The notes under the pieces were generated by a model. That model was not told the DNA's origin, made no database searches, and saw only the letters and a program-made list of their open reading frames with translations. A stretch of DNA of 64,000 nt from positions 116 to 64,115 of the forward strand of contig CAYXSY010000007.1 of the NCBI GenBank assembly GCA_964467905.1. The letters are read 5' to 3'. Made by a program: the position numbers and the translations under genes. Of this stretch, positions 24,300-60,844 are shown piece after piece; positions within the stretch are counted from its first letter, which is position 1; each line of letters begins with the position of its first letter. This DNA comes from an uncultured Planctomycetales bacterium. GTDB lineage: Bacteria > Omnitrophota > Gorgyraeia > Gygaellales > Profunditerraquicolaceae.

Positions 24300-24554
24300 T
24301 TGACAAGGCTCTAATAGTATGTTATTCTTTTCTTAACAATTTAAAAGAGCACAAGGTTGTGCTTAAGATAAAGGACAAAGGCGTTATATAACAATATAAC
24401 GCCTTTTTCTTTTTTATCCTATTCTATGTGAGAATAATTTTATAAAAGTAAGCCCTTCATGCCCGGTCACTTAGAGGGAGAACGGGGTTTTACTTTTTAT
24501 GTAAACAATGGCGTTTTATGCCGTAATCCGGCATAGAACGCCTTTTTATTTTTT
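24300..24554 (+). promoter_or_regulatory. promoter plus two tandem hexaloop-hairpin/terminator attenuators upstream of GAF-ANTAR paralog 2
   Basis: TTGACA (24300-24305), 17-nt spacer, TGtTATTCT (24320-24328). P1 AGCAC-AAGGTT-GTGCT at 24348-24363. P2 GAC-AAAGGC-GTT at 24374-24385, overlapping terminator 24377-24416 (GGCGTTATAT/ATATAACGCC + T-run). Second unit: AAAC-AATGGC-GTTT at 24503-24516, overlapping terminator 24510-24554 (14-bp stem + TTTTTATTTTTT). Confidence 0.7.
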
Positions 24555-24558
24555 AGCC

Positions 24559-25266
24559 ATGCAAAATTCATTTAATGAACAAATAAAGGCCCTTTCTAAA
24601 ATCAGTAAGGCGATTACTTCAGATTTCTATCTGGAGGATATATTGCGTCTGATTGTTACAGTTACGGCAGAAGTTTTAGATTCTAATATTTGTTCTTTGA
24701 TGCTTATTGATGAGAAAACTGGTGAATTAATTGTCCGGGCTACTCAGAGCGTAAGCGAAGAATACAATAAGAAGATGCCTCTTAAGGTTGGTGAAGGCAT
24801 TGCCGGCAAGGCGGTTGAACATAATAAGGCAATAGCAGTAAAGGATGTTACTAAAGAAAAAGAATATAAACATAAAGATGTCGCCAGAAAAGAAGGGCTC
24901 GTATCTTTGTTATGTGTCCCCATGTCGGTAAAGGGTAAAACAATCGGAGTAATTAATTGTTATACCGCCAAAGCACATAATTTCAGCGATACAGAGATAG
25001 AGATATTGACTACTATTGCCAATCAGGCGGCAGTAGCTATTGAGAATACCGAGCTTATGGTTAAAAGCAGGGTTATCCAGGAAGAACTGGAGACTCGCAA
25101 GAGGATTGAGCGCGCCAAAGGTGTTTTAATGCGTGATGAAAAACTCACTGAGGAACAGGCGTATTTAAAGATCCGTAAATATAGTATGGATAATCGTAAA
25201 AGCATGCGTGAAGTGGCGGAAGCGATTATCTTGGCAGCAGATATGAAGCAATTAATCAGGAGCTAA
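24559..25266 (+). CDS. GAF-ANTAR one-component RNA-binding antiterminator (paralog 2)
   Basis: Clear paralog of 19650-20378, with shared runs LRLIV.VTAEV, RATQS, GVINCYT, AAVAIEN and MRE.AEAIILA. The track start at 24508 lies inside the upstream terminator, so Met at 24559 (MQNSFNEQ...) is taken as the start. Confidence 0.85.
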   Translation: MQNSFNEQIKALSKISKAITSDFYLEDILRLIVTVTAEVLDSNICSLMLIDEKTGELIVRATQSVSEEYNKKMPLKVGEGIAGKAVEHNKAIAVKDVTKEKEYKHKDVARKEGLVSLLCVPMSVKGKTIGVINCYTAKAHNFSDTEIEILTTIANQAAVAIENTELMVKSRVIQEELETRKRIERAKGVLMRDEKLTEEQAYLKIRKYSMDNRKSMREVAEAIILAADMKQLIRS

Positions 25267-25368: not shown

Positions 25369-27021
25369 ATGAATCTTAGTAGGCCGAATGCGAATGATGC
25401 AACTGGTACGTTTAACCGCTCAAAAAATGTGGTTCCGGGTTCAGGTATTTGTTCCCGTTGTGTAGACGGCTGCAAGGGTAATTGTGAGATTTTTAAGGCA
25501 AGCTTCAGGGGCAGGGAAGTTATTTATCCGGGGCCTTTTGGTGATATAACCGCGGGTGCGGATAAAAATTATCCTGTCGATTATTCTCATTTTAATATCC
25601 AGGGCTATGCTTTAGGCGCTAAAGGTTTAAGTGAAGGTAGCGACGGTAACCCGGATAATACAAAATTCCCGGATGTGGATACTACGACAGAATACGGGTG
25701 GAGCTCTAAAGTTAAAATGGAAGTTCCTATATTTACCGGGGCTTTGGGTTCTACAGAGATTGCGCGTAAAAATTGGGAGCATTTTGCTGTAGGGGCTGGT
25801 ATATCAGGAATAACTTTGGTTTGCGGAGAAAATGTCTGTGGTATTGACCCCGGGCTTGAGCTTGATAGTAAAGGAAAAATTAAGAATTCTCCTGAGATGG
25901 ATCGTCGCATAGAAATATACAGGAGATTCCATAGGGGTTTTGGAGAGATCCTGGTGCAGATGAACGTAGAGGATACGCGTTTGGGAGTAGCTGAATATGT
26001 CCGTACAAAACATAAGTTAGAGACCATTGAGCTTAAATGGGGGCAAGGGGCTAAATGTATCGGAGGCGAAATAAAAGTCCGTAGCCTCGAACGGGCGCTG
26101 GAATTAAAGAAGCGGGGTTATATTGTTACTCCGGACCCGGGCTCAGAGGTTGTGCAGAAGGCGTTTAAAGATGGAGCGATTAAGGAATTTGAAAGGCATT
26201 CGCGCTTAGGTTTTGTCTCTGAAGAGGCATTCTTGGCGGAAATCAAACGCCTTAGAGATTTAGGTTTTAAGAGAATAACGCTTAAGACGGGGGCTTATTC
26301 TATGCGTGAATTGGCCATGGCTATCAAGTATTCTAGCCTTGCCGGGATTGATCTTCTGACTATTGACGGGGCGCCGGGAGGAACGGGTATGAGTCCGTGG
26401 CGGATGATGCAAGAGTGGGGCATCCCTACTTTTTATCTTGAAGCTTTGGCTTACGAGTTTTGTGATAAATTATCTAAGAAAGGCTTACGTGTGCCTGATA
26501 TCGCGATAGCCGGAGGGTTCTCAAGCGAAGACCATGTGTTTAAAGTAATTGCCATGGGCTCTCCTTATGTAAAGGCAGTTTGCATGGGCCGGGCGTTGAT
26601 GATTCCGGGTATGGTAGGCAAAAATATAGGACTTTGGATTAAGGAAGGCGATGTCCCCGTTACAATTTCTTCATATGGGCACACGGAAAAAGAGATATTT
26701 GTCTGTTATGAAGAGCTTATCGAGAAATATGGTAACGAGATGAAGGATATCCCCCTTGGTGCCATAGGTATATATTCTTTTGTCCAAAAAATAAAGGTTG
26801 GGTTGCAGCAACTTATGGCTGGCAGCAGGAATTTCCGGATAAGCACTATCTCCCGCAATGACCTCATGAGTTTGACCGAAGATGCGGCTAAGGTATCAGG
26901 AATTCCTTATGTGATGGATGCTTATCGCAGCGAAGCGGAGTCGATACTAAACGGGGAATCCGATGTAAGACCAGAAAGAGGTTTTGATCGGCAGCGCTTT
27001 AGCGTATCCGCAAGGAGGTAA
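25369..27021 (+). CDS. FMN-binding glutamate-synthase-domain-2-like protein (GltS-related, stand-alone)
   Basis: Homologous by eye to the GltB FMN/synthase domain (IDGAPGGTGMSP versus ISGGDGGTGASP in the window's own GltB; AGGFSSEDHVFKVIAMG). Has an N-terminal CSRCVDGCKGNCE Cys cluster. Confidence 0.7.
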   Translation: MNLSRPNANDATGTFNRSKNVVPGSGICSRCVDGCKGNCEIFKASFRGREVIYPGPFGDITAGADKNYPVDYSHFNIQGYALGAKGLSEGSDGNPDNTKFPDVDTTTEYGWSSKVKMEVPIFTGALGSTEIARKNWEHFAVGAGISGITLVCGENVCGIDPGLELDSKGKIKNSPEMDRRIEIYRRFHRGFGEILVQMNVEDTRLGVAEYVRTKHKLETIELKWGQGAKCIGGEIKVRSLERALELKKRGYIVTPDPGSEVVQKAFKDGAIKEFERHSRLGFVSEEAFLAEIKRLRDLGFKRITLKTGAYSMRELAMAIKYSSLAGIDLLTIDGAPGGTGMSPWRMMQEWGIPTFYLEALAYEFCDKLSKKGLRVPDIAIAGGFSSEDHVFKVIAMGSPYVKAVCMGRALMIPGMVGKNIGLWIKEGDVPVTISSYGHTEKEIFVCYEELIEKYGNEMKDIPLGAIGIYSFVQKIKVGLQQLMAGSRNFRISTISRNDLMSLTEDAAKVSGIPYVMDAYRSEAESILNGESDVRPERGFDRQRFSVSARR

Positions 27022-27023
27022 GC

Positions 27024-27212
27024 ATGGATAACAAAGGGTTATGTATCAATTGTGCTCACGATAAAACTTGCAGCTTTGTAAGATTTCCTTTGATTTTGCA
27101 GTGTGAAGAATTTGATATCGCTTCTGTTAGCACGGCAGAGCAAAAGTTGCAAAGTTTGAAAAAGAGCGCGCAGTATAAACCAGCTACAGAGCAAGAATAT
27201 ACTGTAGAATAA
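27024..27212 (+). CDS. small Cys-rich protein coupled to the GltS-like gene
   Basis: 62 aa with CINCAHDKTCSF...LQCEEF (a 4-Cys pattern). The start lies 2 nt after the upstream stop. Function unknown. Confidence 0.45.
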   Translation: MDNKGLCINCAHDKTCSFVRFPLILQCEEFDIASVSTAEQKLQSLKKSAQYKPATEQEYTVE

Positions 27213-27244
27213 CATTTGTTGCATTGCCAGGTGATTTATGGCTG

Positions 27245-27279
27245 GCCATGGGGCGTAACACTTGCCCCATGGCTATTTT
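27245..27279 (+). terminator. intrinsic terminator after the GltS-like operon
   Basis: A 10-bp GC-rich stem GCCATGGGGC/GCCCCATGGC followed by TATTTT. Confidence 0.75.
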
Positions 27280-27292
27280 GATTAACTTAATC

Positions 27293-27399
27293 TTGACAAA
27301 ACCCTCTGATATGGTAAAATAACTATACATAGGAGCAGTAGCAAGACAGAGAAGTCTTTTAGTAGAGCAAATGCTACTAAAAGACTTTTTTTATTTTTT
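27293..27399 (+). promoter_or_regulatory. promoter plus AAGAC-N6-GTCTT hairpin and leader terminator of the hydrogenase operon
   Basis: TTGACA (27293-27298), 16-nt spacer, TGgTAAAAT (27312-27320). Hairpin AAGAC-AGAGAA-GTCTT at 27343-27358 overlaps the 5' arm of a 13-bp terminator (27353-27365/27374-27386) followed by TTTTTTTATTTTTT. Confidence 0.7.
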
Positions 27400-27412
27400 A
27401 GCTGGTTTTCTA

Positions 27413-28852
27413 ATGAATACACAAATATCGTTGTCTTATCTTATCTTTGTACCATTGTTTGGAGCGTTAAGCTTGCCTTTGTTAGGGAAAATTTCAGCTT
27501 ACCTTAGGAATTCATTAGCTTTAGTTCTTACGCTCGTCCCACTGGTTATTTCTGTCTTGTTATGGCCTCATGTTTCTTCCGGCGGAGTTATCATCTCAAA
27601 TATTACCCTGCCTTTGGGTTTTAATCTTAACTTGCAAGCAGATGCCTTGGCAGTTTTTATGGCCTCTGTCTCATCATTTATAAGCGCGTTAATAGTTGTA
27701 TATTCATTTTCTTATATCAGCCATTACAGGAATCAAAATGAATACTATTTTTTTGTTGTCTTATTTGTCGCCGCGATGGCAGGGCTTGTTTATTCTGCAA
27801 ATTTGATTTTCTTGTATATATTTTGGGAGATTACCGCTATTGCCAGCTGGCGCCTGATAGGTTTCTTTAGAAATAAAGAGTATGTTTTAAAAGCGGACAA
27901 GGCTTTTATGATTACTGTCTTTGGCGCTCTCTTGATGCTTTTGGGTTTTATCATGATATATACACAAACGGGGTCTTTTGATATTCCGGCTATAAAGGAG
28001 GCGATAAAGGCAAAACCTTTATCGGGCTTGGTTATTGTGTTAATACTGGCGGGGATATTGTCTAAATCTGCTACTTTGCCGTTTCAGACCTGGCTTCCTG
28101 ATGCCGGTATTGCGCCATCTCCTGTGACTGCGCTTTTGCATGCCGCGGTTTTAGTTAAAATAGGTGTTTATGTATTCGCACGTTTATTCGTAGTTAATTT
28201 TCCCCTTATTGATTCCTGGTCTAATGTTGTCTTGCTGATAGCTGCCGCAAGCACTTTAATATCTGCCGGGTGCGCTTTTATTGAGTCTGATTTAAAGCGC
28301 ATCATCGCTTATTCTACTATAAGCCAGATAGGTTTTATTTTCTTAGGGTTTGCATCAGGCACTTCGATAGGTATCTTCGGAGGCCTATTGTATATTCTTA
28401 TACATGGTTTAGGCAAGGCGGGGCTTTTCTTATGCGCGGGAGTTATAGAGCAGAATTGCGGGACTAAAGATATAAATAAACTCGGGGGGCTGGCAAAGAC
28501 TATGCCTTTTACCGCAGCTGCTTTTTTAATTTGTGCTTTTTCGATAATGGGCGTGCCTCCCACGGGAGGTTTTTTTAGTAAATATATGGTACTTGCAGGG
28601 GCTTTTACCGGAGGACATTATTTAGTTGCTTGGGTTTTCCTTGTTTGTGCGGTTTTTACCGTACTGTATCTTTTGAGAGTATTTTGTGCTGTATTCTTAG
28701 GCGGGCTCAAGATAAATGCTGGAGAGGGCACGCGCTCAATGGTATCTTGCATTGTTATATTGGCGGTATTGTCCATAGCTGCAGGGGTATTTATGGGGTA
28801 TTTATCCGTTCCGCTAGATGATATAACTAAACAAATGCTAGCATTAAAATGA
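27413..28852 (+). CDS. hydrogenase membrane subunit, Mrp/NuoN-M-type antiporter-like
   Basis: Polytopic, with proton-antiporter-M family signatures (WEITAIASW, SATLPFQTWLPDA, AYSTISQIG). The track start at 27371 lies inside the leader terminator, so Met at 27413 (MNTQISL) is used. Confidence 0.8.
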   Translation: MNTQISLSYLIFVPLFGALSLPLLGKISAYLRNSLALVLTLVPLVISVLLWPHVSSGGVIISNITLPLGFNLNLQADALAVFMASVSSFISALIVVYSFSYISHYRNQNEYYFFVVLFVAAMAGLVYSANLIFLYIFWEITAIASWRLIGFFRNKEYVLKADKAFMITVFGALLMLLGFIMIYTQTGSFDIPAIKEAIKAKPLSGLVIVLILAGILSKSATLPFQTWLPDAGIAPSPVTALLHAAVLVKIGVYVFARLFVVNFPLIDSWSNVVLLIAAASTLISAGCAFIESDLKRIIAYSTISQIGFIFLGFASGTSIGIFGGLLYILIHGLGKAGLFLCAGVIEQNCGTKDINKLGGLAKTMPFTAAAFLICAFSIMGVPPTGGFFSKYMVLAGAFTGGHYLVAWVFLVCAVFTVLYLLRVFCAVFLGGLKINAGEGTRSMVSCIVILAVLSIAAGVFMGYLSVPLDDITKQMLALK

Positions 28853-30669
28853 CACAAACTATATTATTACCTATAATTCTTTTGCCTGCTGTTTTAGGTG
28901 GCTTATTGTTTCTGCTGCCGCTTAGGGCATCTAGAATTGCATTTTTGCTGTCTTCTTTAGTTAACGCAATCTTAGCATTCTCTCTCTTTGGCAAACAGGC
29001 AGATTATATTGTCCCCTGGGCAGGTTTTGGGTTGGATTTTTCTCTGAGACTATATCAGTTCAGCGGTTTTATTCTGGCTGCATGCGCTTTCTTTGGACTA
29101 TTAATAGCTGTCTACTCGTTTAAGTTTATGTCGGATAGACACAATCAGAAACAGTTCTATGCCTGTTTATTGTTGTCGCTTTCTTTTGTTAATGGGGCAG
29201 TCTTAGCCGACAATCTGGCATTATTATTGTTTTTCTGGGAAGCCCTGTTGATTACGATGTTCGTTATGATTAATGCAGGCTCTGATCACGCATATCATAC
29301 CGCCAAGAAGGCATTTATTATCGTAGGTTTTTCGGATATCTGTCTTATGGCCGGGGTGATTCTTGCAGGTATTTTAGGCGGGACGCTTAATATCGCCGGT
29401 ATGCATTTATCTTGTAGTGGATTATCTAACTTAGCTTTTATTTTGCTTATCATTGGAGCTCTTGCTAAGGCAGGCTCTATGCCGTTTCACACCTGGATAC
29501 CGAATGCAGCCGTTGATTCCCCGCTGCCATTTATGGCTTTTTTCCCTGCAGCTATTGAGAAATTGCTGGGGATATATTTTTTAAGCCGCATATGTTTGGA
29601 TATTTTTAAACTTGAAGCTTCATCAGCCATGAGTACGCTTTTGATGGCTGTGGGGGCTTTTACGATAATACTGGCTGTTATGATGGCATTAATTCAGAAG
29701 GATTACAAGAGGCTGCTTTCTTATCATGCTATAAGTCAGGTTGGATATATGGTTTTGGGTATAGGCACTTGTCTGCCCGTGGGGATAGTGGGTGGTATCT
29801 TTCATATGATTAATCATGCCTTGTATAAGAGCTGCCTTTTTCTTACTGCTGGTTCGGTTGAAAAGCAGACTGGTACAACCGAGCTTAGTGTCTTAGGGGG
29901 CTTATGGCGTAAGATGCCGGTTACTTTCATTTGTTTTACGGTCGCCGCGCTCTCTATTTCCGGAGTTTTCCCTTTTAATGGCTTCTTTTCCAAGGAGCTC
30001 ATATACGATGCTGCTTTAGAGAGAGGATTAGTTTTTTACATTGCGGCTATTCTAGGTTCATTCTTTACAGCGATTTCTTTCTTAAAGTTAGGGCATGCTG
30101 TGTTTATAGGTAGAAGCCGTAAAGATTATCCGCAGCTGAAAGAAGCCCCGTATTTGATGCTTTTGCCTATGATCGCGATTGCTTTAATTTGTATCATATT
30201 TGGCGTATTTAATTACCTGCCTCTTAGGAACTTAATACAGCCTATTATAGCAGACAGGCTTATGGGGCATGATTATAGCGGTATGCCGCATAATATTATA
30301 ATTATTGCTATAACCTTGATAGCATTATTAGGTGCTTTTATGCACCATATTTTTGCTGTACGTATAATGGGCAGCCCGCTTAAAGCAGCAGATGATATAT
30401 ATCATGCTCCTGTTATCAGGCGTGTATATAATTGGGCTGAAAGAGGTTTCTTTGATCCGTATATTATAGGTATGAAACTAATTGATAAATTGTCTATGTT
30501 TTTGATGTCTTTAGACCGTTTAATAGATTGGTTTCTGGGAGATTTTTGTGTTAGTCTCTCAAATAGAACCTCCCTGTTAATCAGGCAGCTTCATTCGGGT
30601 TATTACGTTATTTATATTATCTGGTCGCTTATAGGAGCAGCATTCGTTGTGGTTTTTGCGATAAGATAA
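28849..30669 (+). CDS. hydrogenase membrane subunit, NuoL/MrpA-type antiporter-like
   Basis: 606 aa and polytopic (FWEALLITMF, GSMPFHTWIPNA, SYHAISQVGYM), with an extended C-terminal region. ATGA overlap with the upstream gene. Confidence 0.8.
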   Translation: MTQTILLPIILLPAVLGGLLFLLPLRASRIAFLLSSLVNAILAFSLFGKQADYIVPWAGFGLDFSLRLYQFSGFILAACAFFGLLIAVYSFKFMSDRHNQKQFYACLLLSLSFVNGAVLADNLALLLFFWEALLITMFVMINAGSDHAYHTAKKAFIIVGFSDICLMAGVILAGILGGTLNIAGMHLSCSGLSNLAFILLIIGALAKAGSMPFHTWIPNAAVDSPLPFMAFFPAAIEKLLGIYFLSRICLDIFKLEASSAMSTLLMAVGAFTIILAVMMALIQKDYKRLLSYHAISQVGYMVLGIGTCLPVGIVGGIFHMINHALYKSCLFLTAGSVEKQTGTTELSVLGGLWRKMPVTFICFTVAALSISGVFPFNGFFSKELIYDAALERGLVFYIAAILGSFFTAISFLKLGHAVFIGRSRKDYPQLKEAPYLMLLPMIAIALICIIFGVFNYLPLRNLIQPIIADRLMGHDYSGMPHNIIIIAITLIALLGAFMHHIFAVRIMGSPLKAADDIYHAPVIRRVYNWAERGFFDPYIIGMKLIDKLSMFLMSLDRLIDWFLGDFCVSLSNRTSLLIRQLHSGYYVIYIIWSLIGAAFVVVFAIR

Positions 30670-30695
30670 GGGAATAAAAAAGAAAGGTTTCTAGA

Positions 30696-32129
30696 GTGCC
30701 GTCATTTTTCATTTTAGTCCCGTTTTTCTTGCTGGTATTTATTAATATACCGTTCAGGAATATTTCTAAATATTGTTATTTTTGGGCGCCGGCGTTTTTA
30801 TTTTTACTCCAGGCATGTCTTGTTATTCTGAATCCTTTGTTGTTCTGGAGTGTTTATCCTGACCCGTTCGGAGCATTCTTTTCTTTTGGTTTGTCAGTGG
30901 ATAAGCTTAGCCTTATTGCTTTATTTTGCATAGGCCTTGTAGCATTGATATCAATAATGGTAGGTAAGGCGACCATAGAAGATACACGCAGGAGGTTTTA
31001 TTTTGTAAATTTAATATTAATCTGTGTTATGGGCATGAATGCGGCCGTTCTATCAACCGATATATTTTCCTTGTATGTATTTATTGAAATAACCGCTTTG
31101 TCATCTTTTTTGCTGATTGGTATCTTCCGGGATAAATTCGGCATAGAAGCAGCTTTTAAATATATGATACTTTCTTCTATCGCCACGGTATTTATGCTTT
31201 CTTCTATCGGGTTATTTATTCTTATGGCAGGAGGGACGTCATTTACCGCAATATATGGGGCTTTTGCTGGAGGAACAGCTAATTTTCTTCTGCAGCTTGC
31301 GGTGGTATTATTTGTCTGCGGGCTTCTTATTAAATCTGGGGTTATCCCGTTCCACGGTTGGCTTCCGGATGCTTATGCGGCTAGTCCCGCTGCCGCTTCA
31401 ATACTGTTGGCTGGGATTGTGACAAAGATATGCGGAGTTTATGTATTGTTGCGTCTTTTTATTTCTGTTTTCTCTGTTTACCCTGGACTAAAAGAAGCGA
31501 TTATGATTTTGGGTTTGGTTTCGATTTTTGTCGGCGCATTTGCCGCCATTACCCAGAATAATCTAAAGCGTATGTTGTCCTACTCGAGCATAAGTCAGGT
31601 AGGCTATATTATCTTAGCCTTAGGATGCGCAACCCCGCTTGCGTTTTGCGGAGCAATCTTTCATTTTCTAAATCATGCCATATTCAAATCGCTTCTTTTT
31701 GTTAATGCTGCGGCTATTGAGAAGGCAACAGGCATGATAGATATAGATAAAATAGGCAGTAAAGCAGTATCGATGCGTCTTACCGGATTCACAAGTTTAT
31801 TTGGTTTCTTTTCTGCTGCAGGCATTCCGCCTTTTGCCGGATTCTGGAGCAAGCTTGTTATTATTATTGCGCTATTAGCATCCGGCAAGGTACTTTATGC
31901 AGGCGCTGCCATAGTTGCCAGCATATTAACAGTGGCATATTTTCTTTATTTGGAAAGGGGACTTTTCTTCAGGAGCGATGACAAAGCCGAACCCCAGTCT
32001 TTAAATAAAGTTTCTTTTAATCTCATTTTCCCCCAGGTCCTACTGGCCCTGATTACTATTGGTATGGGATTAGGTTTTCCTTTTATATTTAATACCTGGA
32101 TATTGCCTCTGGAGGGCCTGGTGCGATGA
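30696..32129 (+). CDS. hydrogenase membrane subunit, NuoM/MrpD-type antiporter-like
   Basis: 477 aa and polytopic (FIEITALSSF, GVIPFHGWLPDAY, SYSSISQVGYI). GTG start. Confidence 0.78.
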   Translation: MPSFFILVPFFLLVFINIPFRNISKYCYFWAPAFLFLLQACLVILNPLLFWSVYPDPFGAFFSFGLSVDKLSLIALFCIGLVALISIMVGKATIEDTRRRFYFVNLILICVMGMNAAVLSTDIFSLYVFIEITALSSFLLIGIFRDKFGIEAAFKYMILSSIATVFMLSSIGLFILMAGGTSFTAIYGAFAGGTANFLLQLAVVLFVCGLLIKSGVIPFHGWLPDAYAASPAAASILLAGIVTKICGVYVLLRLFISVFSVYPGLKEAIMILGLVSIFVGAFAAITQNNLKRMLSYSSISQVGYIILALGCATPLAFCGAIFHFLNHAIFKSLLFVNAAAIEKATGMIDIDKIGSKAVSMRLTGFTSLFGFFSAAGIPPFAGFWSKLVIIIALLASGKVLYAGAAIVASILTVAYFLYLERGLFFRSDDKAEPQSLNKVSFNLIFPQVLLALITIGMGLGFPFIFNTWILPLEGLVR

Positions 32130-32629
32130 GCGAGCTTCAATTAGATATGGTTTTATTATTTACATTGCTTATATCCGCGTTATGGACAGTTATGACCGTC
32201 AGGCTTATCAGGGCTATAGTAGGGCTGGCCCTAACCAGCGCCGTACTTTCCATGATAATGTATAGGCTTTCATCGCCTTTGGCGGCTGTCTTTGAATTAT
32301 CGGTTTGTGCGGGATTGATTTCTGTAATATTTGTTACTACTGTTAGCTTTACGCAGCGCGTAAGTAAGGAACGTTTGATTGCGCGCCGCAAGGAAAGATT
32401 TATGAAATTCTGGTATCTGCCTTTTATTCTCGTGGCAGGAGCGTTGGTATTAGTTTATTACACAAAAATACCTAAGAACATCGCTGTGCACCCTAAGGTT
32501 GATATGGATGTACGTAATATGCTCTGGAATATAAGGCACCTTGATTTGCTAGGGCAGATTATACTGCTTCTAACAGGTTCGATAGGAGTTGTAGTTTTGT
32601 TTAAGGAGTTCAAAGATGATAAGTCTTGA
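32126..32629 (+). CDS. MnhB/MbhD-E-like small membrane subunit
   Basis: 167 aa with 4-5 TM helices and a conserved acidic residue in VFELSVCAGLIS. Its position between the antiporter-like and NuoK-like subunits fits this assignment. Confidence 0.55.
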   Translation: MSELQLDMVLLFTLLISALWTVMTVRLIRAIVGLALTSAVLSMIMYRLSSPLAAVFELSVCAGLISVIFVTTVSFTQRVSKERLIARRKERFMKFWYLPFILVAGALVLVYYTKIPKNIAVHPKVDMDVRNMLWNIRHLDLLGQIILLLTGSIGVVVLFKEFKDDKS

Positions 32630-32939
32630 GTCGGCGTATCTTTTCTGGTATTTCAGCATTTTTATAATACTTTTATTTATAATTGGTGTTTACTGTATTC
32701 TGGCCAGCTTTAATTTAATCAGGGCTTTAATTGGTCTTGAGATATTAATTAAGGCTGCTACGCTGTTAATAATCTTATCCGGGCATATAAGCGGCAGGGA
32801 AGATTTGGCTCAAGCGGTAGTTATTACACTTATAGTTATCGAGGTTGTAGTTATGGTGGTCGCGGGTGGTATTGCCCTATGGGCATTTCGTCATAATAAG
32901 ACGATTGACCCCAGAAAACTTACAAATTTAAAAGGCTGA
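32616..32939 (+). CDS. NuoK/MrpC/MbhG-like membrane subunit
   Basis: 107 aa with 3 TM helices and membrane-embedded Glu residues (GLEILIKA, VIEVVV). Confidence 0.6.
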   Translation: MISLESAYLFWYFSIFIILLFIIGVYCILASFNLIRALIGLEILIKAATLLIILSGHISGREDLAQAVVITLIVIEVVVMVVAGGIALWAFRHNKTIDPRKLTNLKG

Positions 32940-32943
32940 GACT

Positions 32944-33279
32944 ATGTTTAAGGATATTTTGATTACTCCACCAGCAGTATTCCTTATTATTTTCATTGTG
33001 ATGGTACTATTAGCGCGCATCTTATCTGCTTTAGCGTTTCACAGAAAGGTTCCTTCCAAAGAATCAAAGAAGGCATATGCCTGCGGAGAGGATTTTAAAG
33101 AACATCTAATCCAGCCTGATTACAGCCAGTTTTTTCCTTTCGCGTTTTTCTTTACCATACTTCATGTTGTGGCTTTAGTCATAGCTACCGTACCCATGGA
33201 AAGCCTTGAGACTTTTGCTATCGCAGTTGTGTATATTATCGGGGCGGTTATAGGTTTATCCATACTTTTGAGGAGATAA
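32944..33279 (+). CDS. NuoA/MbhI-like membrane subunit
   Basis: 111 aa with 3 TM helices. YACGED matches the NuoA PYECG loop position, and it lies immediately upstream of the NuoB-like gene as in nuo operons. Confidence 0.5.
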   Translation: MFKDILITPPAVFLIIFIVMVLLARILSALAFHRKVPSKESKKAYACGEDFKEHLIQPDYSQFFPFAFFFTILHVVALVIATVPMESLETFAIAVVYIIGAVIGLSILLRR

Positions 33280-33714
33280 TTGATGGGGTTAGTAAAGAAA
33301 GTAGTTCTGTGGTCACAGACTAAATCTCCGTGGGTTTTGCATTTTAACACCGGAGCGTGCAATGCCTGCGATATAGAAATTGTTGCCGCCTTGACTCCGC
33401 GGTATGATTTGGAGCGTTTTGGCGTGCAGCTTAAAGGTACCCCCAGGCATGCAGATATCTTATTATGTTCAGGTCCGGTTACAAAACAAATCGAATGCCG
33501 CCTGAAGAGAATTTATGAGCAGATGCCTGAGCCAAAATTTGTAGTAGCTGTGGGTACTTGTGCTTGTTCCGGAGGGGTGTTCAACGGCTGTTATAATGTT
33601 GACGGCGGTATTAATAAGGTAATTCCGGTTTCAGCCTATATACCCGGATGTCCTGCCAGTCCCAAGGCAATTATTGACGGAGTAGTTAAGCTTTTAGCAA
33701 GCGTCAAAGATTAA
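33280..33714 (+). CDS. [NiFe] hydrogenase small subunit, NuoB/MbhJ-type
   Basis: Four Cys for the proximal [4Fe-4S] cluster in the NuoB pattern (GACNACDIE, GTCACSGG, IPGCPASP). Confidence 0.88.
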   Translation: MMGLVKKVVLWSQTKSPWVLHFNTGACNACDIEIVAALTPRYDLERFGVQLKGTPRHADILLCSGPVTKQIECRLKRIYEQMPEPKFVVAVGTCACSGGVFNGCYNVDGGINKVIPVSAYIPGCPASPKAIIDGVVKLLASVKD

Positions 33715-33738
33715 ACTTTCTTTAAAGGATAGAAAACG

Positions 33739-34200
33739 ATGCAGGAAGATATTATTAAGGATAAGCTGGAATCAAGATTTAGTTATCTCAAGGGCGCTGT
33801 TTCTGTCTCCAGAATTTCACGTCTATCTATTGAACTAAAGAAAGAAAACCTTAATGAGGTTTTAGATTATTTGATTCATGAGTTTGGATTTAAAAAGCTT
33901 TCTACGATTACCGGGATTGATTTAGGTGATAACTTAGAGTTAATTTATCACTTAGATGGAGGAGGGAGCTTGATCATCAATGTAAAGGTTCGTCTAGAGA
34001 GGGATAACCCCCGCATTAATACGGTAATCCCGTATTTTTTGAATGCTGATACATACGAACGCGAGCTCGTGGATTTATTAGGCGTTAATGTAGATGGTTT
34101 GCCTAAGGGTAACCGTTATCCGCTCCCGGATAACTGGCCGCAGGGGCAGCATCCTTTACGTAAAGATTGGCCGGGCAAGATTAGCCAAGGAGGTGTTTAA
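33739..34200 (+). CDS. NuoC/MbhK-like hydrogenase subunit
   Basis: 153 aa with NuoC-type motifs (ERELVDLLGV, YPLPDNWP). Sits between the NuoB- and NuoD-like genes. Confidence 0.8.
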   Translation: MQEDIIKDKLESRFSYLKGAVSVSRISRLSIELKKENLNEVLDYLIHEFGFKKLSTITGIDLGDNLELIYHLDGGGSLIINVKVRLERDNPRINTVIPYFLNADTYERELVDLLGVNVDGLPKGNRYPLPDNWPQGQHPLRKDWPGKISQGGV

Positions 34201-34201
34201 A

Positions 34202-35440
34202 ATGCATGATTCTGGTGAAGTAAAGATTCCTATCGGTCCTCAGCATCCGTCTTTGAAAGAGCCAGAGAGCTTCTTGATAACTTTGCGAGGAGAGAAAATT
34301 ACGGCTTCCAGTATAAGATTAGGATATAACCATCGTGGCATAGAGAAGGCATGCGAACAGAGGAGCTATACCCAGGCGTTGTATTTGGTTGAACGTATCT
34401 GCGGGATATGTTCCCATTCGCACGCAACCTGTTTTGTCCATGCCGTAGAAGAAATCGCCGCCTTAGATGTTCCTAAAAGAGCAAAGTATATACGTACTTT
34501 AATCTCGGAGCTGGAGAGAATCCACAGCCACCTTCTCTGGTTAGGTGTAGCAGGGCATGAGATAGGGTTTGATACGCTGCTTATGTATACCTGGAGGGAT
34601 CGCGAGATAGTAATGGATATATTAGCGCTTTTAAGCGGCAATCGTGTAAATTACGGAATGAATACTATAGGCGGAGTAAGGCGTGATATATCAAAAGAAC
34701 AGATAGACGAGGTAGTCAAGGGCATCAAGATTTTAGAAGAACGCACGAAATATTATATAGATTTAGCTAAGGGTGAGACTACGCTTGCAAAGAGGCTTTC
34801 AGGAGTAGGTATTTTATCTAAGGATGATGCATTGAAGTTAGGGGCAGTTGGTCCGGTAGCCAGGGCATCTGGCATAAAATGCGATGTGAGAAAAGATGAC
34901 CCTTATTCTATATATCCGGAACTTGATTTTGAAGTTGTCACAAGTGATTGCTCTGATGTGTACGGACGTACCCTTGTGCGTTTAGGCGAACTTATGCAAT
35001 CTTATAGTATGATACAGCAGATTCTTAAGAAAATTCCTGATGGACCGCTTGTTGTGAAGGCGCCGCGTAAAATACCTGCTGGAGAGGCAGTCAGCCGGTA
35101 TGAGGCTCCGCGCGGAGAAGATTTTCATTATGTAAAATCAAATGGTACGGAGAAACCCGAAAGGGTTAAGGTCCGCGCTCCTACCTTAGCCAATATTCAG
35201 GCAGTTTCGCGTATGCTTGAAGACAGGTATTTAGCGGATATGCCTATAGTTGTGGCGGCAATAGATCCATGTTTTTCCTGTACAGATAGACTTATTTCTT
35301 TGCGCCATGGGCAAAAAGGCAGCAGAGAAGTATTGAGCTGGGAGGCGTTGCGCTTAAGGAGCATAGAGTGGTACAAAAAAAGAGGAATAGATTTTTCAAA
35401 GATAAGCCAGAGGTTTTCAAATAAATTGGCAATAAGATAA
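34202..35440 (+). CDS. group 4 [NiFe] hydrogenase large (catalytic) subunit, NuoD/MbhL-type
   Basis: Both Ni-Fe ligand motifs are retained: RICGICSHSH near the N-terminus and DPCFSCTDR at the C-terminus. AAGGAGG lies 8 nt upstream of ATG 34202. The track start at 34094 overlaps the previous gene and is rejected. Confidence 0.9.
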   Translation: MHDSGEVKIPIGPQHPSLKEPESFLITLRGEKITASSIRLGYNHRGIEKACEQRSYTQALYLVERICGICSHSHATCFVHAVEEIAALDVPKRAKYIRTLISELERIHSHLLWLGVAGHEIGFDTLLMYTWRDREIVMDILALLSGNRVNYGMNTIGGVRRDISKEQIDEVVKGIKILEERTKYYIDLAKGETTLAKRLSGVGILSKDDALKLGAVGPVARASGIKCDVRKDDPYSIYPELDFEVVTSDCSDVYGRTLVRLGELMQSYSMIQQILKKIPDGPLVVKAPRKIPAGEAVSRYEAPRGEDFHYVKSNGTEKPERVKVRAPTLANIQAVSRMLEDRYLADMPIVVAAIDPCFSCTDRLISLRHGQKGSREVLSWEALRLRSIEWYKKRGIDFSKISQRFSNKLAIR

Positions 35441-35442
35441 AT

Positions 35443-36384
35443 ATGGCAAAGATTATTTTACAAATCCTTATCTTTCCCGGTTTCCTTTTTCTTTTTATGT
35501 TCGGGCTTTTCGCCGAATACCTGGATCGCAAGCTTTATGCCCGTTTTCAGAATAGAATTGGTCCACCGTGGTTTCAGCCGTTAGCCGACTTTATAAAATT
35601 ATTGAGTAAGGAAGATATAGTTCCTGAAGAGGCCGATGCCAGGATATTCAAGCTTATGCCAGTTTTTGCGCTTACGGCTACAGTGAGCGCGTTTTTATAT
35701 ATCCCTACCTGGAGTAAGGAGGCCATTTTTTCCTTTAACGGAGACGTCATAGTTGTCTTATATCTGTTGACTATCCCGACTTTGACTTATTTTCTCGGCG
35801 GGTGGTATTCGCGTTCAGTTTATTCTATGATAGGTGCTATACGTTCTTTGACCCAATTGTTTGCTTATGAGGTGCCGCTTTTTATGACAATACTGGCTTC
35901 GGCATTACTGGCAGACAGCTGGTCTCTGAGTAATATGGTCAGTTTTTATAATGCCCATCCCTGGTATTGGCTTTTTAACATACCGGGATTTTGTATCGCT
36001 TTGATTTCCTTATTGGGTAAGTTAGAGAGGGTGCCGTTTGATATTCCGGAAGCAGAGACTGAGATAGTCGCGGGAAGCTTTACTGAATACAGCGGCAGGC
36101 TCCTTGCGCTTTTTCGTTTGTCTTTGGATATAGAGTTAGTCGTCGGAGCATCTTTATTAGCAGCAGTCTTTATGCCGTTCGGTTTGGGCTTTCATTCATT
36201 ACTGGGTTTTGTATTATATATCGTTGAAACTTTATTTATTATAGGGGCGGTTGCTTTCTTACGCTCGATATTTGCGCGCCTCAGGTTAGATCAGATGATT
36301 GCTGTTTGCTGGAAATATTTTGCCCCTGTGGCGTTTTTACAGGTTCTTCTTAACTTGATTTTGAAAGGAATACTTCCAAGATGA
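35443..36384 (+). CDS. NuoH/MbhM-like membrane subunit
   Basis: 313 aa and polytopic, with NuoH signatures (RKLYARFQNRIGP, FAYEVPL, ERVPFDIPEAETEIVAG). Confidence 0.85.
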   Translation: MAKIILQILIFPGFLFLFMFGLFAEYLDRKLYARFQNRIGPPWFQPLADFIKLLSKEDIVPEEADARIFKLMPVFALTATVSAFLYIPTWSKEAIFSFNGDVIVVLYLLTIPTLTYFLGGWYSRSVYSMIGAIRSLTQLFAYEVPLFMTILASALLADSWSLSNMVSFYNAHPWYWLFNIPGFCIALISLLGKLERVPFDIPEAETEIVAGSFTEYSGRLLALFRLSLDIELVVGASLLAAVFMPFGLGFHSLLGFVLYIVETLFIIGAVAFLRSIFARLRLDQMIAVCWKYFAPVAFLQVLLNLILKGILPR

Positions 36385-36773
36385 GTAGGCCAGGTAAGGT
36401 TACTAGGCAGGTTTTGTCTTCTTTGACCAAGAAACCGGCAACTATAAATTATCCGCGCCAGGCATCCCCTATGCCTAAAGGATTCCGCGGTAAACTTAAA
36501 TTTAATCCCGATCTTTGTATAGGGTGCCGTATGTGCATGCGTGATTGCCCTACGGGAGCAATAGAAATACGCAAAGTAGCCGATAAAACATTCGAGGCAG
36601 TAATAGATTTGGGTAAATGTATATATTGCGGACAATGTGCGGATTCCTGTATAAAAAAAGCCATACAGCTGACAGGCGATTTCGAGCTTGCCGAGCTTGA
36701 TTATAAGAAGCTTAATATTATTTTTAAGAATGAACCATCTGAAGGAAGCTCTCAGGGGCAAGCTAAAGAATAA
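36381..36773 (+). CDS. 2x[4Fe-4S] ferredoxin subunit, NuoI/MbhN-type
   Basis: CIGCRMCMRDCP and CIYCGQCADSC motifs. ATGA overlap with the upstream gene. Confidence 0.85.
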   Translation: MSRPGKVTRQVLSSLTKKPATINYPRQASPMPKGFRGKLKFNPDLCIGCRMCMRDCPTGAIEIRKVADKTFEAVIDLGKCIYCGQCADSCIKKAIQLTGDFELAELDYKKLNIIFKNEPSEGSSQGQAKE

Positions 36774-37227
36774 GCACAAAATTGTTGTCTTAGGTATAGG
36801 TTCTGATTTCAGGGGTGATGATGCCTCTGGGCTTATGGCCGCTAGAATTGTTTTAAGAAGGATATCCAGGCGTAAGACGCCAGGCAGAATTAGCGCGGTC
36901 TTTGCAGAGTCAGTTCCTGAAAATATCACAGGTTTAATCCGTAAGATAAAACCTGGCTACGTTATAGTTATTGATTCTGCGCATATAGGTAAGCAGGCTG
37001 GAGATTTTTGTGTCATTGAGCCCAGCGATATAGAAAATAATCTTGTCAGTACCCATAAAGTGTCTTTGGACGTGTTCTCTAGATATCTTGAGCAGAGTAT
37101 AGGTTGTAAAATGTTTATCGTTGGGATACAGCCTAAGTCTATAAAATTCGGTTCTTCTGTTACTAAACAGGTAGCATTAGCCGCAAAAAAAGTAGCCGTT
37201 ACGTTAATTGAGCTTGACAAGGCCTGA
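36730..37227 (+). CDS. hydrogenase maturation endopeptidase (HycI-like)
   Basis: KIVVLGIGSDFRGDDASG, then DSAH and VSTHK. Met at 36730 is chosen; the track start at 36688 lies deeper inside the previous gene. Confidence 0.75.
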   Translation: MNHLKEALRGKLKNKHKIVVLGIGSDFRGDDASGLMAARIVLRRISRRKTPGRISAVFAESVPENITGLIRKIKPGYVIVIDSAHIGKQAGDFCVIEPSDIENNLVSTHKVSLDVFSRYLEQSIGCKMFIVGIQPKSIKFGSSVTKQVALAAKKVAVTLIELDKA

Positions 37228-37359
37228 TTATATGGTATAATTTACTTGTAATAGATAAGAAAGACAAAGATGTCTTCAGGCAAATAGGCCTGAAGATTTT
37301 TTATTCTCTAGGACTAAGGCGTCCTTTTATCCGGTGGTGGGTAGAGGGACGTTTTTTTT
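37214..37359 (+). promoter_or_regulatory. promoter plus two tandem hairpin/terminator units upstream of the sigma-factor gene
   Basis: TTGACA (37214-37219), 16-nt spacer, TGgTATAAT (37233-37241). AAGAC-AAAGAT-GTCTT at 37261-37276 overlaps terminator TCTTCAGGC/GCCTGAAGA + TTTTTT (37273-37302). GGAC-TAAGGC-GTCC at 37311-37324 overlaps a second stem (37320-37328/37343-37351) followed by T8. Confidence 0.65.
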
Positions 37360-37375
37360 GTTTTAAAGGAGAGCC

Positions 37376-37900: not shown

Positions 37901-37971
37901 TTTTGTTGTTACCAATTCATGTAAATTGTTACTTGTATAAGTGAAACACATTGATGTGTAGTAGTAAAGCC

Positions 37972-38009
37972 AAGGATGCTTAAGTTTTAAGTATCCTTTT
38001 TTTGTTTTT
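37972..38009 (+). terminator. intrinsic terminator after the sigma-factor gene
   Basis: A 12-bp stem AAGGATGCTTAA/TTAAGTATCCTT (one G-U pair), 3-nt loop, then TTTTTTTGTTTTT. Confidence 0.75.
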
Positions 38010-40531: not shown

Positions 40532-40611
40532 GCACATCGTAGTGCAAAAATAGGCATAAAGAAGACAGGGGCGTTCTTCAATCGCAAGGAAGGACGCCTC
40601 TTTATTTTTTT
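40532..40611 (+). promoter_or_regulatory. dual hexaloop hairpins plus terminator between glnK and glnN
   Basis: P1 GCAC-ATCGTA-GTGC at 40532-40545. P2 GAC-AGGGGC-GTT at 40564-40575, overlapping a 13-bp terminator stem (40567-40579/40589-40601) followed by TTTATTTTTTT. An extended -10 TGgTATAAT at 40620-40628 lies downstream of the terminator. Confidence 0.6.
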
Positions 40612-40656
40612 ATAGGCTGTGGTATAATAAAGAAAATTATTCATAGGAGGGTGTAT

Positions 40657-42905: not shown

Positions 42906-42964
42906 GAACATCGACGTTCATAAAAGTTGGATTATTTTTCCAGCTTGGATGAACGTCTTTTTTT
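42906..42964 (+). promoter_or_regulatory. hexaloop hairpin overlapping a terminator between glnN and the mini-NtrC/gltB genes
   Basis: GAAC-ATCGAC-GTTC at 42906-42919 overlaps the 5' arm of stem GACGTTCAT/ATGAACGTC (42913-42921/42949-42957), followed by TTTTTTT. Confidence 0.55.
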
Positions 42965-43024
42965 ATCCATTATGCCATAATGGAATATTCTTATAACAAG
43001 CATTGATTAAGGTTTGGGCAAAAT

Positions 43025-43402
43025 ATGATAACTATATTGATAGCTGATGATGAAATTAAGGCAAAAGAAAACCTTGTTAACGTGTTAAAGCAGGGCGGCT
43101 ATGACTTAGCGGATGGTTTCGCGGCGGATAATACTATAAGATTTATGAGGAAGAAGGATATAAGTGATTTATCTTTCGTCAGGGATATAGTTATTGAGTT
43201 AGATGATTCTTTGATTAAAGAGAATAAGGGCGCATTATACAGAACTGTACTTGAGGCCATAGAAAAGCCTTTGTTTGAGCGCATACTGGAGCGTACAGAG
43301 GGCAATCAACTTAAAGCCGCTAGGATACTAGGGATAAACCGTAATACTATGCGTACCAAGATGAAGAAATTCGGGATAAATATAAACAAATGGAAAATAT
43401 GA
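43025..43402 (+). CDS. mini NtrC-like protein: receiver-domain remnant plus Fis-type HTH, no AAA+ domain
   Basis: The N-terminus MITILIADDEIKAKENLVNVLKQGGYDL looks like receiver beta1-alpha1-beta2. The C-terminus LYRTVLEAIEKPLFERILERTEGNQLKAARILGINRNTMRTKMKKFGI is a typical NtrC/Fis HTH_8. Only 125 aa. Overlaps the gltB start. Confidence 0.6.
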   Translation: MITILIADDEIKAKENLVNVLKQGGYDLADGFAADNTIRFMRKKDISDLSFVRDIVIELDDSLIKENKGALYRTVLEAIEKPLFERILERTEGNQLKAARILGINRNTMRTKMKKFGININKWKI

Positions 43403-47931: not shown

Positions 47932-47932
47932 A

Positions 47933-51122: not shown

Positions 51123-51126
51123 AGAT

Positions 51127-52206: not shown

Positions 52207-52209
52207 AAT

Positions 52210-53862: not shown

Positions 53863-53863
53863 A

Positions 53864-60817: not shown

Positions 60818-60844
60818 AGATACCCCGGGAACGCGTATTAAATT

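Follow-up and report, generated by a model that had tools for sequence, protein, structure and literature searches.

How does an enzyme that has very little free energy to draw on come to carry three antiporter-like modules? The question is raised by a 12-gene operon on the + strand (27413-37227) of a 64,000-nucleotide stretch of contig CAYXSY010000007.1, from an uncultured bacterium of the Omnitrophota; this whole stretch is referred to below as the window. We find that its product is probably a functional [NiFe] hydrogenase of the energy-converting group 4, bound to the membrane, and that the 11 structural subunits match the minimal core of complex I one-to-one. Homologues of NuoA, NuoB, NuoC, NuoD, NuoH, NuoI, NuoJ and NuoK are all present, together with three subunits of the NuoL/M/N type. 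Most likely the enzyme produces H2 reversibly with electrons from ferredoxin and couples this to the translocation of ions.

Results

The operon holds a complete set of complex I core homologues

The 12 open reading frames (ORFs) are co-directional and closely spaced, in the order L-L'-N-J-K-A-B-C-D-H-I-HycI (Table 1). Domains were assigned by Pfam and NCBIfam searches and the closest solved relatives by searches of Protein Data Bank (PDB) chains. A scan of one genome per species matched at least 599 stretches, at least 583 of which encode a relative, and the locus comparisons below, apart from those with more distant relatives, use the best 80 of these related stretches, whose large subunits are 68-76% identical. 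Orthologues extracted from the 80 loci were aligned for residue conservation, giving 58-81 sequences per subunit.

The original prediction, made from the letters alone, described a 12-gene group 4 [NiFe] hydrogenase operon with three antiporter-like subunits, NuoK- and NuoA-like subunits and a terminal HycI-type protease. ORFs, domains and coordinates all bear this out, the first antiporter-like subunit being 479 aa long. The A-B-C-D-H-I order that it also proposed is confirmed as that of nuo; the membrane genes (L-L'-N-J-K-A) depart from it. Like the original prediction, we place the first start of the operon at 27413 and not at 27371, where a longer ORF begins, because the leader terminator spans 27348-27400; the large subunit starts at ATG 34199 (413 aa), not at 34094. 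No gene contains a frameshift or stop, and strong purifying selection acts across all 12. By these sequence measures the enzyme appears functional, with no sign of decay.

Catalytic subunits keep the Ni-Fe site

The large subunit combines Complex1_49kDa and NiFeSe_Hases domains and contains both RICGICSHSH and DPCFSCTDR. Its four Ni-Fe cysteines (C68, C71, C358 and C361) and the cleavage-site Arg364 are invariant in 81 of 81 sequences, confirming the two CxxC ligand pairs noticed at the outset. Beyond Arg364 lie 49 further residues, and cleavage of this extension by HycI is predicted. The endopeptidase matches PF01750 and, above the cut-off, TIGR00072 (76 bits; cut-off 47), with 99.8 bits to TIGR00142 (cut-off 119). 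All the marks of group 4 are therefore found: RxCGxCxxxH and DPCxxCxxR, NuoB- and NuoI-like iron-sulfur (FeS) subunits, NuoH with antiporter-like subunits, and a C-terminal extension accompanied by HycI. The closest solved relative of the large subunit is MbhL of Pyrococcus furiosus (6cfw_L; E 6e-103, 348 bits, 47% identity), followed by HycE and then NuoD.

The electron-transfer subunits are equally well kept. In the NuoB-like subunit (PF01058, 110 bits), which has a hydrogenase-type CxxC cluster motif, C30 and C94 occur in all 77 sequences and C27 and C124 in 76 of them. The NuoC-like subunit matches PF00329 with 90 bits. The NuoI-like subunit belongs to the Fer4 families, and its eight cysteines are all invariant in 72 sequences.

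The membrane arm has a NuoL-type lateral helix and conserved coupling residues

Proton_antipo_M was detected in the subunits of 479, 606 and 477 aa (E 8e-73, 2e-52 and 2e-62, respectively). The glutamate of transmembrane helix (TM) 5 and the lysines of TM7 and TM12 are conserved at 100% in all three, and the TM8 lysine at 100% in two and in 57 of 64 sequences in the first. The 479-aa subunit is closest to MrpA (7qru_A, 3e-58), NuoL (3rko_L, 1e-53) and MbhH (2.7e-52); Glu139, Lys218 and Lys390 are its invariant TM5, TM7 and TM12 residues, and His243/Lys249 its TM8 positions. The 477-aa subunit resembles MbhH (6cfw_H, 8e-52), MrpD (7qru_D, 6e-49) and NuoN (TIGR01770, 232 bits), and has invariant E131, K213, K244, H323, H327 and K386, with K331 in 65 of 66 sequences.

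The 606-aa subunit covers positions 41-609 of the 615-position NCBIfam NuoL profile, and its residues 55-604 align with residues 73-622 of Mycobacterium smegmatis NuoL (8e9g_L). E131, K207, E237-K238 and K382-E383 are invariant, as is Pro233 at the position of the NuoL TM8 histidine. An AlphaFold2 model built from 62 homologues (pLDDT 84.9, pTM 0.83) has a long helix, 537-581, followed by a terminal TM helix, 586-605, and the best Foldseek matches of the model were full-length NuoL and MrpA chains (TM-score 0.73-0.79). The long helix and these structural matches show that the hydrogenase has a NuoL-type lateral helix. Structure prediction had been suggested for the membrane arm, and for this subunit it returned the NuoL fold with that helix. 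In some records labelled Margulisiibacteriota, homologues of this subunit are about 1000 aa long (proteins P0123, P0124, P0129 and P0139); antiporter-like subunits 1 and 2 may be fused in them.

The smaller membrane proteins complete the set. The 167-aa protein had been called MnhB-like, a label that gives way to NuoJ/MbhD-like (DUF4040): it matches Oxidored_q3 (NuoJ) with 24 bits and MbhD with 22 bits, both below threshold, and among PDB chains MbhD (6cfw_D, N-terminal part, E 1.7e-5) and Escherichia coli NuoJ (E 0.05). Its Glu57 is invariant (69/69). The NuoK-like subunit (PF00420, 59 bits) has Glu42 in 67 and Glu76 in all of 68 sequences. The NuoH-like subunit (PF00146, 262 bits; Nqo8 1e-39, MbhM 1e-36) has a conserved PFDxPEAExE loop.

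The NuoA-like subunit scores 21.9 bits against PF00507, whose cut-off is 23.3, and as a single sequence found, weakly, no PDB chains other than ND3. A profile of 35 orthologues matched ND3/NuoA chains and nothing else (10/10, best E 0.0087). Tyr45, Gly48, Glu49 and His74 are invariant in 71 of 71 sequences. The aspartate of the ND3 'FDxE' motif aligns with His74 and the glutamate has no counterpart, so the suspected replacement of the acidic pair (ILHVVA) is real: the motif reads His74-Val-Val/Ala.

Table 1. Features of the hydrogenase operon and of its flanking regulatory sequences (window positions)
Feature	Position	Strand	Remarks
Sigma-70-like promoter	27293-27320	+	TTGACA-16-TAAAAT, TG-extended -10; 11/12 matches
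Hairpin AAGAC-AGAGAA-GTCTT	27343-27358	+	Hexaloop A1, G4 (ANTAR-type P2); 3' arm overlaps 5' arm of terminator
Leader intrinsic terminator	27348-27400	+	18-bp stem, then T-run; between promoter and first gene
Antiporter-like subunit 1	27413-28852	+	479 aa; MrpA/NuoL core, no C-terminal extension
Antiporter-like subunit 2	28849-30669	+	606 aa; NuoL-like, lateral helix and C-terminal anchor helix
Antiporter-like subunit 3	30696-32129	+	477 aa; MbhH/MrpD/NuoN-like
NuoJ/MbhD-like subunit	32126-32629	+	167 aa
NuoK/MbhG-like subunit	32616-32939	+	107 aa; two membrane glutamates
NuoA/ND3-like subunit	32944-33279	+	111 aa; Asp/Glu pair replaced by His74-x-Val/Ala
NuoB-like hydrogenase small subunit	33280-33714	+	144 aa; one [4Fe-4S]
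NuoC-like subunit	33739-34200	+	153 aa; separate from large subunit
[NiFe] large subunit, NuoD/MbhL-like	34199-35440	+	413 aa; 49-residue C-terminal extension past DPCFSCTDR
NuoH/MbhM-like membrane subunit	35443-36384	+	313 aa
NuoI/MbhN-like 2x[4Fe-4S] subunit	36381-36773	+	130 aa; presumed electron entry
HycI-type maturation endopeptidase	36730-37227	+	ORF of 179 aa, open from TTG 36688; probably starts at ATG 36730
Hairpin AAGAC-AAAGAT-GTCTT	37261-37276	+	In leader of sigma-factor gene
Two terminators just past operon	37272-37355	+	Double as leader of sigma-70-family gene 37376

The operon is widespread and annotated as group 4g

Close relatives of the large subunit number in the thousands, and a representative library at 50% identity reduces the clade as a whole to one or two clusters. 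Among the 80 loci, all that are of sufficient length share exactly the 12-gene order, under labels from several phyla, so the cluster as such is not unusual. About half of these loci are labelled Omnitrophota; the others carry the labels Phycisphaerae/Sedimentisphaerales and further Planctomycetota, Verrucomicrobiota, Margulisiibacteriota, Krumholzibacteria, Spirochaetota and Endomicrobiales, all being labels of metagenome-assembled genomes (MAGs), some of which may come from binning errors. The same 12 genes, with a 70% identical large subunit, lie on the complete chromosome of Candidatus (Ca.) Velamenicoccus archaeovorus LiM (locus L075). This organism encodes a '4g nickel-iron membrane-bound hydrogenase' (Seymour et al., PMC10066038), a published call that may refer to the L075 locus.

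'Group 4g, Mrp-linked' hydrogenases have likewise been annotated in Omnitrophota MAGs from Ace Lake (Williams et al., PMC8542988), and the group 4g enzymes of this phylum are described as membrane-bound, presumably ferredoxin-dependent and H2-evolving (PMC8542988, PMC10066038, PMC11257099). The original prediction allowed that the enzyme might belong to a well-characterised subgroup with the same subunit set, leaving only its regulation of note. That case does not apply, as group 4g is populated but uncharacterised, a loose bin 'of unknown function' (PMC5037454) that is polyphyletic (PMC13582414); in a 2026 study, clusters like Ech2 of Thermoanaerobacter kivui fall in a different 4g subclade (PMC13582414). 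Our literature search found the bacterial clade nowhere explicitly described as a complete 11-subunit complex-I-type hydrogenase, only as '4g' or 'Mrp-linked' annotations and through an Asgard analogue; the paper on the limonene enrichment contains no expression values for the V. archaeovorus hydrogenase. The operon is an ordinary member of a large, annotated clade without biochemical study, and its value does not lie in rarity.

More distant relatives vary in architecture. A 58% relative (L082) has the same layout, whereas a bacterial relative at 51% (L084:4557-13019) has two antiporter-like subunits and the order J-K-L-M-A-B-C-D-H-I-HycI. An archaeal relative, also at 51% (L085:2108-6077), has a clear NuoA (PF00507), NuoB, fused NuoCD, NuoH and NuoI, and a histone gene nearby. 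In one Phycisphaerales-labelled MAG (L008) a second, divergent NuoB/NuoI/NuoD/antiporter cluster lies downstream on the - strand; its proteins are 28-43% identical to those of the window, and they probably form either a true complex I or a further complex of the group-4-like kind.

The usual neighbours are ion-gradient genes

Flanking ORFs of all 80 loci were clustered to find recurrent neighbours. A membrane pyrophosphatase (PF03030) lies near the operon in 26 loci, at a median distance of 150 bp. F-type ATP synthase genes are found there as well (subunit a in 15 loci, b in 12, alpha/beta, gamma and delta in 11 each), as are ExbB/TolQ-type and ExbD/TolR-type genes (15 loci each). Such 'bioenergetic islands' occur in L009, L011, L012, L014, L019, L022, L023, L029, L032, L040, L041, L051, L053, L059, L070, L078 and others. 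This gene context is good evidence that the enzyme belongs to the ion-gradient machinery of the cell.

The recurrent neighbours include neither a formate or CO dehydrogenase nor a hyp cluster or an enzyme that reduces ferredoxin. Within the 64-kb window, a Pfam search of most ORFs of at least 110 aa found no hyp, fdh, cooS or mrpEFG genes; the search left aside the last three large ORFs (59291-62925), and small stand-alone ORFs were judged by translation only. The two surveys agree with the earlier statement that no formate dehydrogenase, CO dehydrogenase, MrpEFG or hyp genes are linked.

In the window the operon is enclosed by a nitrogen-assimilation cluster

From about 17 to 55 kb the window is occupied by nitrogen-assimilation genes on both sides of the hydrogenase. 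The cluster begins with NAD synthase, an AsnC regulator, an aminotransferase, a GAF-ANTAR regulator (19650-20378), an NfnA/NfnB-type pair and glutamate dehydrogenase (GDH), and continues with a second GAF-ANTAR regulator (24559-25266), a 550-aa protein, a 62-aa Cys-rich ORF and the hydrogenase operon. Downstream of the latter come a sigma-70-family factor (37376), an unknown protein, AmtB, PII and a type III glutamine synthetase, then a Fis-type helix-turn-helix (HTH) protein, GltB, GltD, CTP synthase, CarA, CarB and a class-II amidotransferase. The last four form a glutamine-consuming run (49515-55234) after the glutamate synthase (GOGAT).

The GAF domain of the second GAF-ANTAR protein resembles that of NifA (E 2e-18). 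The longest ORF of this gene starts within its own leader terminator (24510-24542), and the real start is probably ATG 24559.

The original prediction further envisaged a ferredoxin hub tying H2 cycling to reductive glutamate synthesis, and this fared less well. Its Nfn-like genes are indeed an NfnA/NfnB-type pair (20520/21366; PRK06222 360 bits, TIGR01316 527 bits), and the leader design described below is shared. The ferredoxin-type GltS-like neighbour did not hold up. A complete GOGAT (43390-49357) includes the small subunit GltD (TIGR01317, 634 bits), which makes it an enzyme of the pyridine-nucleotide and not of the ferredoxin type. The 550-aa protein has no NCBIfam match and only a partial match to the glutamate-synthase FMN domain (52 bits), too poor for a ferredoxin-dependent GltS. 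With pyrophosphatase, ATP synthase and ExbBD as the usual neighbours, the hub is weakly supported overall.

The region between the second GAF-ANTAR gene and the hydrogenase (25369-27212) encodes the 550-aa protein, which has an N-terminal cysteine cluster CSRCVDGCKGNCE, and then the 62-aa ORF (CINCAHDKTC...C), after which a terminator follows at 27243-27275. In L016 a 56% identical homologue of the 550-aa protein stands beside homologues of GDH and of the GAF-ANTAR proteins. Seven other Omnitrophota loci also have nitrogen genes flanking the operon (L004, L005, L015, L016, L029, L051 and L069), which makes about 8 of 81 cases, a minority.

The hydrogenase leader shares its design with nitrogen genes

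A strong intrinsic terminator stands between the promoter and the first hydrogenase gene (minimum free energy -21.9 kcal/mol, z -3.75, equalled by none of 200 shuffles). The hairpin that overlaps it (27343-27358 against 27348-27391) is weak alone (-3.8 to -4.8 kcal/mol). At least six operons of the nitrogen cluster share a layout with the hydrogenase operon: a near-consensus promoter, a small hairpin with an AnnGnn hexaloop, an overlapping strong terminator and a TTTTTATTTTT tail. The regions concerned are 24300-24560, 27293-27400, 37214-37360, 37946-38000, 40532-40612, 42906-42965 and 49423-49495, and promoters similar to that of the hydrogenase precede other leaders at 20386, 24300 and 37214.

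Two hexaloop hairpins (24478 and 24503) lie in the leader of the second GAF-ANTAR gene. The glnA-III leader has a hairpin at 40532 and a bulged P2 near 40562, the second recognised by eye, and one at 42906 precedes the Fis-HTH gene upstream of gltBD. The pyrG leader (49423-49490), with hairpins at 49423 and 49447, is a textbook dual-hexaloop, ANTAR-like element. The leaders of the second GAF-ANTAR gene, glnA-III and pyrG are the candidates for a dual hairpin in the window. Two hairpin classes can be told apart, AAAC-AATGGC-GTTT (24503, 49447) and AAGAC-AnAGAn-GTCTT (27343, 37261), and these may correspond to the two GAF-ANTAR regulators.

Hairpins overlap 4 of the 14 perfect-stem terminators on the + strand of the window, against roughly 0.4 expected by a rough estimate. 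In the 80 loci a strict perfect-stem scan gave nine overlaps among 182 terminators; because it misses imperfect terminators, our estimate of recurrence rests on a motif search. AGAC-AnnGnn-GTCT occurs twice in the window. The related loci, 1.35 Mb in all, contain nine copies on the + strand and none on the opposite one. Eight of the nine copies lie in leaders (seven were inspected; the eighth, in L041, is at a contig start). The motif precedes the hydrogenase operon itself at L015:3101, L018:3071 and L020:3065, a pyrophosphatase gene directly preceding the operon at L032:773, L041:54 and L059:726 (identified by Pfam in L059 and by tblastn in L032 and L041), and amtB at L004:11972. In L032, L041 and L059 the hairpin is clear of the terminator, some 8-16 nt past the -10 box.

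By eye, 5 of the 9 leaders also have a hexamer, ATAGRW, that precedes the hairpin by 10-14 nt and has no convincing stem. A canonical ANTAR P1 hairpin was not found in the hydrogenase leader, scanned for stems of at least 4 bp and by eye for looser ones. With Rfam, used at gathering thresholds, no match was obtained anywhere in the window, and therefore no known riboswitch or leader family explains these leaders.

Targets of ANTAR proteins are RNAs in which an A1/G4 hexaloop P2 hairpin overlaps a terminator and a second hexaloop hairpin, P1, lies just upstream; the genes under their control are overwhelmingly nitrogen genes (Ramesh et al. 2012, PMC3369931). The common leader design suggests a regulatory tie of the hydrogenase to nitrogen assimilation and makes ANTAR control of its operon plausible. 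The leader terminator would gate expression after initiation, and an RNA-binding antiterminator, probably one of the two nearby GAF-ANTAR proteins, would override it. We put forward only tentatively, as less likely than not, the wider proposal that a complex-I-bodied bacterial hydrogenase with an active Ni-Fe site in place of the quinone site, intermediate between Mbh-type hydrogenases and complex I, sits in a nitrogen-status regulon under GAF-ANTAR antitermination and is switched together with ammonium assimilation.

Discussion

Mechanism and direction

The subunit set lends itself to the following mechanism. The dedicated HycI protease would trim the large subunit. Analogy with Mbh and Ech, and the literature, make reduced ferredoxin the most probable low-potential donor; it would feed the two [4Fe-4S] clusters of the NuoI-like subunit, from which electrons would pass through the single NuoB-like cluster to the Ni-Fe site of the NuoD-like subunit and there reversibly reduce protons to H2. 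Redox chemistry at the NuoH-like interface would be relayed through an 'E-channel' formed by H, A, J and K, with NuoK Glu42 and Glu76, NuoJ Glu57 and NuoA His74 as its residues. The three antiporter-like subunits, with the lateral helix of the 606-aa one as their clamp, would carry the relay on through their Lys/Glu chain and move H+ and/or Na+ across the membrane. The resulting gradient would be common to the membrane pyrophosphatase, the F-type ATP synthase and ExbBD-type motors.

Several points weigh against a ferredoxin-fed pump of this kind. The donor, direction, coupling ion and stoichiometry are modelled on Mbh, Ech and complex I, and the clade is without a purified member. The NuoA- and NuoJ-like calls score weakly (see above), and the hyp maturation genes were not found within the scanned parts of the window. 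A further point is energetic. For each H2, the transfer of electrons from ferredoxin to protons yields about 20-40 kJ, which would move one or two ions; it cannot pay for four ions per two electrons. Three antiporter-like modules and the E-channel would provide four ion paths, as in complex I, and because of the small free energy the arm exceeds the apparent need of a simple forward H2-evolving pump. Either some modules exchange ions instead of pumping them, as proposed for Mbh, or the enzyme often runs backwards, the gradient driving the reduction of ferredoxin with H2.

The second way out, taken as the normal direction, has the same enzyme oxidise H2 while an inflow of several ions drives uphill ferredoxin reduction, the reduced ferredoxin then feeding anabolism, including Nfn-type formation of NADPH and ammonium assimilation. 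Reverse operation has been proposed for Ech, Eha and Ehb in methanogens. On general bioenergetic grounds, four putative ion paths suit a high ion-per-electron ratio better than they suit H2 evolution. The setting of the operon speaks for it too: it lies inside a nitrogen-assimilation cluster, adjoining the NfnAB-type pair and GDH, shares its leader design with a GAF-ANTAR gene, glnA(III), the Fis-HTH gene, pyrG and the sigma-factor gene, and is flanked by nitrogen genes in the seven further loci. Acetogenesis or a partial Wood-Ljungdahl pathway, which needs reduced ferredoxin, is moreover predicted in many Omnitrophota (Seymour et al., PMC10066038). Published annotations, however, assume H2 evolution for redox balance (PMC8542988, PMC10066038), and the commonest neighbours, pyrophosphatase and ATP synthase, are compatible with either direction. 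No ferredoxin-dependent glutamate synthase was demonstrated in the window, where the complete GOGAT has GltD, and nothing in the sequence sets the direction. We regard habitual reverse operation as unlikely and retain reversible H2 production as the better account.

A different donor fares much worse. An H2-evolving complex dependent on formate or CO (formate hydrogenlyase/Hyf-like or Coo-like), with its partner dehydrogenase encoded elsewhere, could appeal to the HycI-type protease, to HycE as the second-best solved relative of the large subunit (E 1.6e-76) and to the three antiporter-like subunits, which recall E. coli Hyf. Yet no FdhF, HycB/HyfA-type or CooS/CooF protein is encoded by the scanned window ORFs or by the recurrent neighbours of the 80 loci, NuoC and NuoD are separate, unlike the fused HycE, and the large subunit is nearer to MbhL than to HycE (348 versus 261 bits). 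We reject both types as very improbable. That the complex reduces quinone or another acceptor in the manner of complex I, Ehr or Mbx, or is a decaying relic, is hardly credible: the top NCBIfam match of its large subunit is NuoD (353.5 bits, just below the cut-off of 360) and its complex I subunit set is complete, but the Ni-Fe cysteines, the arginine and the C-terminal extension are invariant in 81 sequences, a HycI gene lies in the operon, and all 12 intact genes are under purifying selection.

Significance

Loci of this clade are common in MAGs from anoxic environments (at least 583 stretches), where the usual annotation is 'group 4g', 'NuoD' or 'Mbh'. Neither complex I nor Mrp-linked Mbh is the right reading of them. 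Their usual neighbours in Omnitrophota make them part of an ion-gradient toolkit with pyrophosphatase, ATP synthase and ExbBD-type motors. A minimal complex I set with a hydrogenase site bears on the evolution of complex I from proton-reducing ancestors, and a complex-I-bodied intermediate, if such it is, would offer a tractable model for the recruitment of the full proton-pumping arm. Should the leader prove to be an ANTAR target, it would be, in the literature searched, the first link between ANTAR nitrogen regulons and a respiratory hydrogenase. In archaea the architecture is already known, and for the bacterial enzyme annotations exist; the value of the locus lies in the complete complex I body with a Ni-Fe site and, possibly, in nitrogen-linked antitermination control.

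Comparison with known systems

The annotated kin of the enzyme are the HydDB group 4g hydrogenases of Ca. Velamenicoccus archaeovorus, Ca. Gorgyraea, Ca. Saelkia, Cloacimonadota and Endomicrobium. Endomicrobium proavitum, a cultured carrier, is reported to have a 4g enzyme (PMC11257099). T. kivui Ech2, the sole studied 4g member named in the papers cited here, is said to have the gene-cluster organisation of a different 4g subclade (PMC13582414).

E. coli Hyc (7z0s) and Hyf share with the enzyme group 4 membership and a HycI-type protease, and Hyf also has three antiporter-like subunits. They differ in their FdhF and HycB/HyfA partners, and their large subunit is more distant than MbhL. With no linked formate or CO dehydrogenase in the scanned window ORFs or among the neighbours in the 80 loci, and with NuoC unfused, the operon falls outside groups 4a and 4c.

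P. furiosus Mbh (group 4d; 6cfw) is the closest solved relative of the catalytic subunit, of the third antiporter-like subunit and of the N-terminal part of the NuoJ-like subunit, and by analogy the logic of electron flow from ferredoxin through FeS clusters to Ni-Fe would be the same. Mbh combines one antiporter-like subunit with an Mrp-type module of MbhA-C and MbhF, which are related to MrpE/F/G/B. The operon instead has three antiporter-like subunits, of which one carries a NuoL lateral helix, together with a NuoA-like subunit. The Mrp-derived module is absent from the operon, from the scanned parts of the window and from the recurrent neighbours of the 80 loci, which places the enzyme outside 4d as well.

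A similar enzyme is the 'complex I-like' group 4 [NiFe] hydrogenase of Asgard archaea (Valentin-Alvarado et al. 2024, PMC11291895). It too joins a group 4 module to several NuoL/M/N-like subunits, the L-like one with an HL helix, and its genes cluster with those of ATP synthase; as a difference, up to eight Nuo-like genes are reported (PMC11291895). The archaeal relative L085, which may be the Asgard enzyme, has NuoC and NuoD fused, unlike the operon.

With the core of complex I (NDH-1; NuoABCDHIJKLMN) the enzyme shares 11 of 11 subunits, the order A-B-C-D-H-I, the NuoL lateral and anchor helices, the NuoK glutamates and the antiporter Lys/Glu chain. In contrast to complex I, its NuoD homologue keeps the Ni-Fe site and would be matured by HycI, its NuoB homologue has the hydrogenase-type CxxC, an invariant histidine replaces the NuoA Asp/Glu pair, the N-module (NuoEFG) is lacking, and the membrane genes come first, as L-L'-N-J-K. 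By its sequence, then, the enzyme has the architecture of complex I and is not a quinone reductase.

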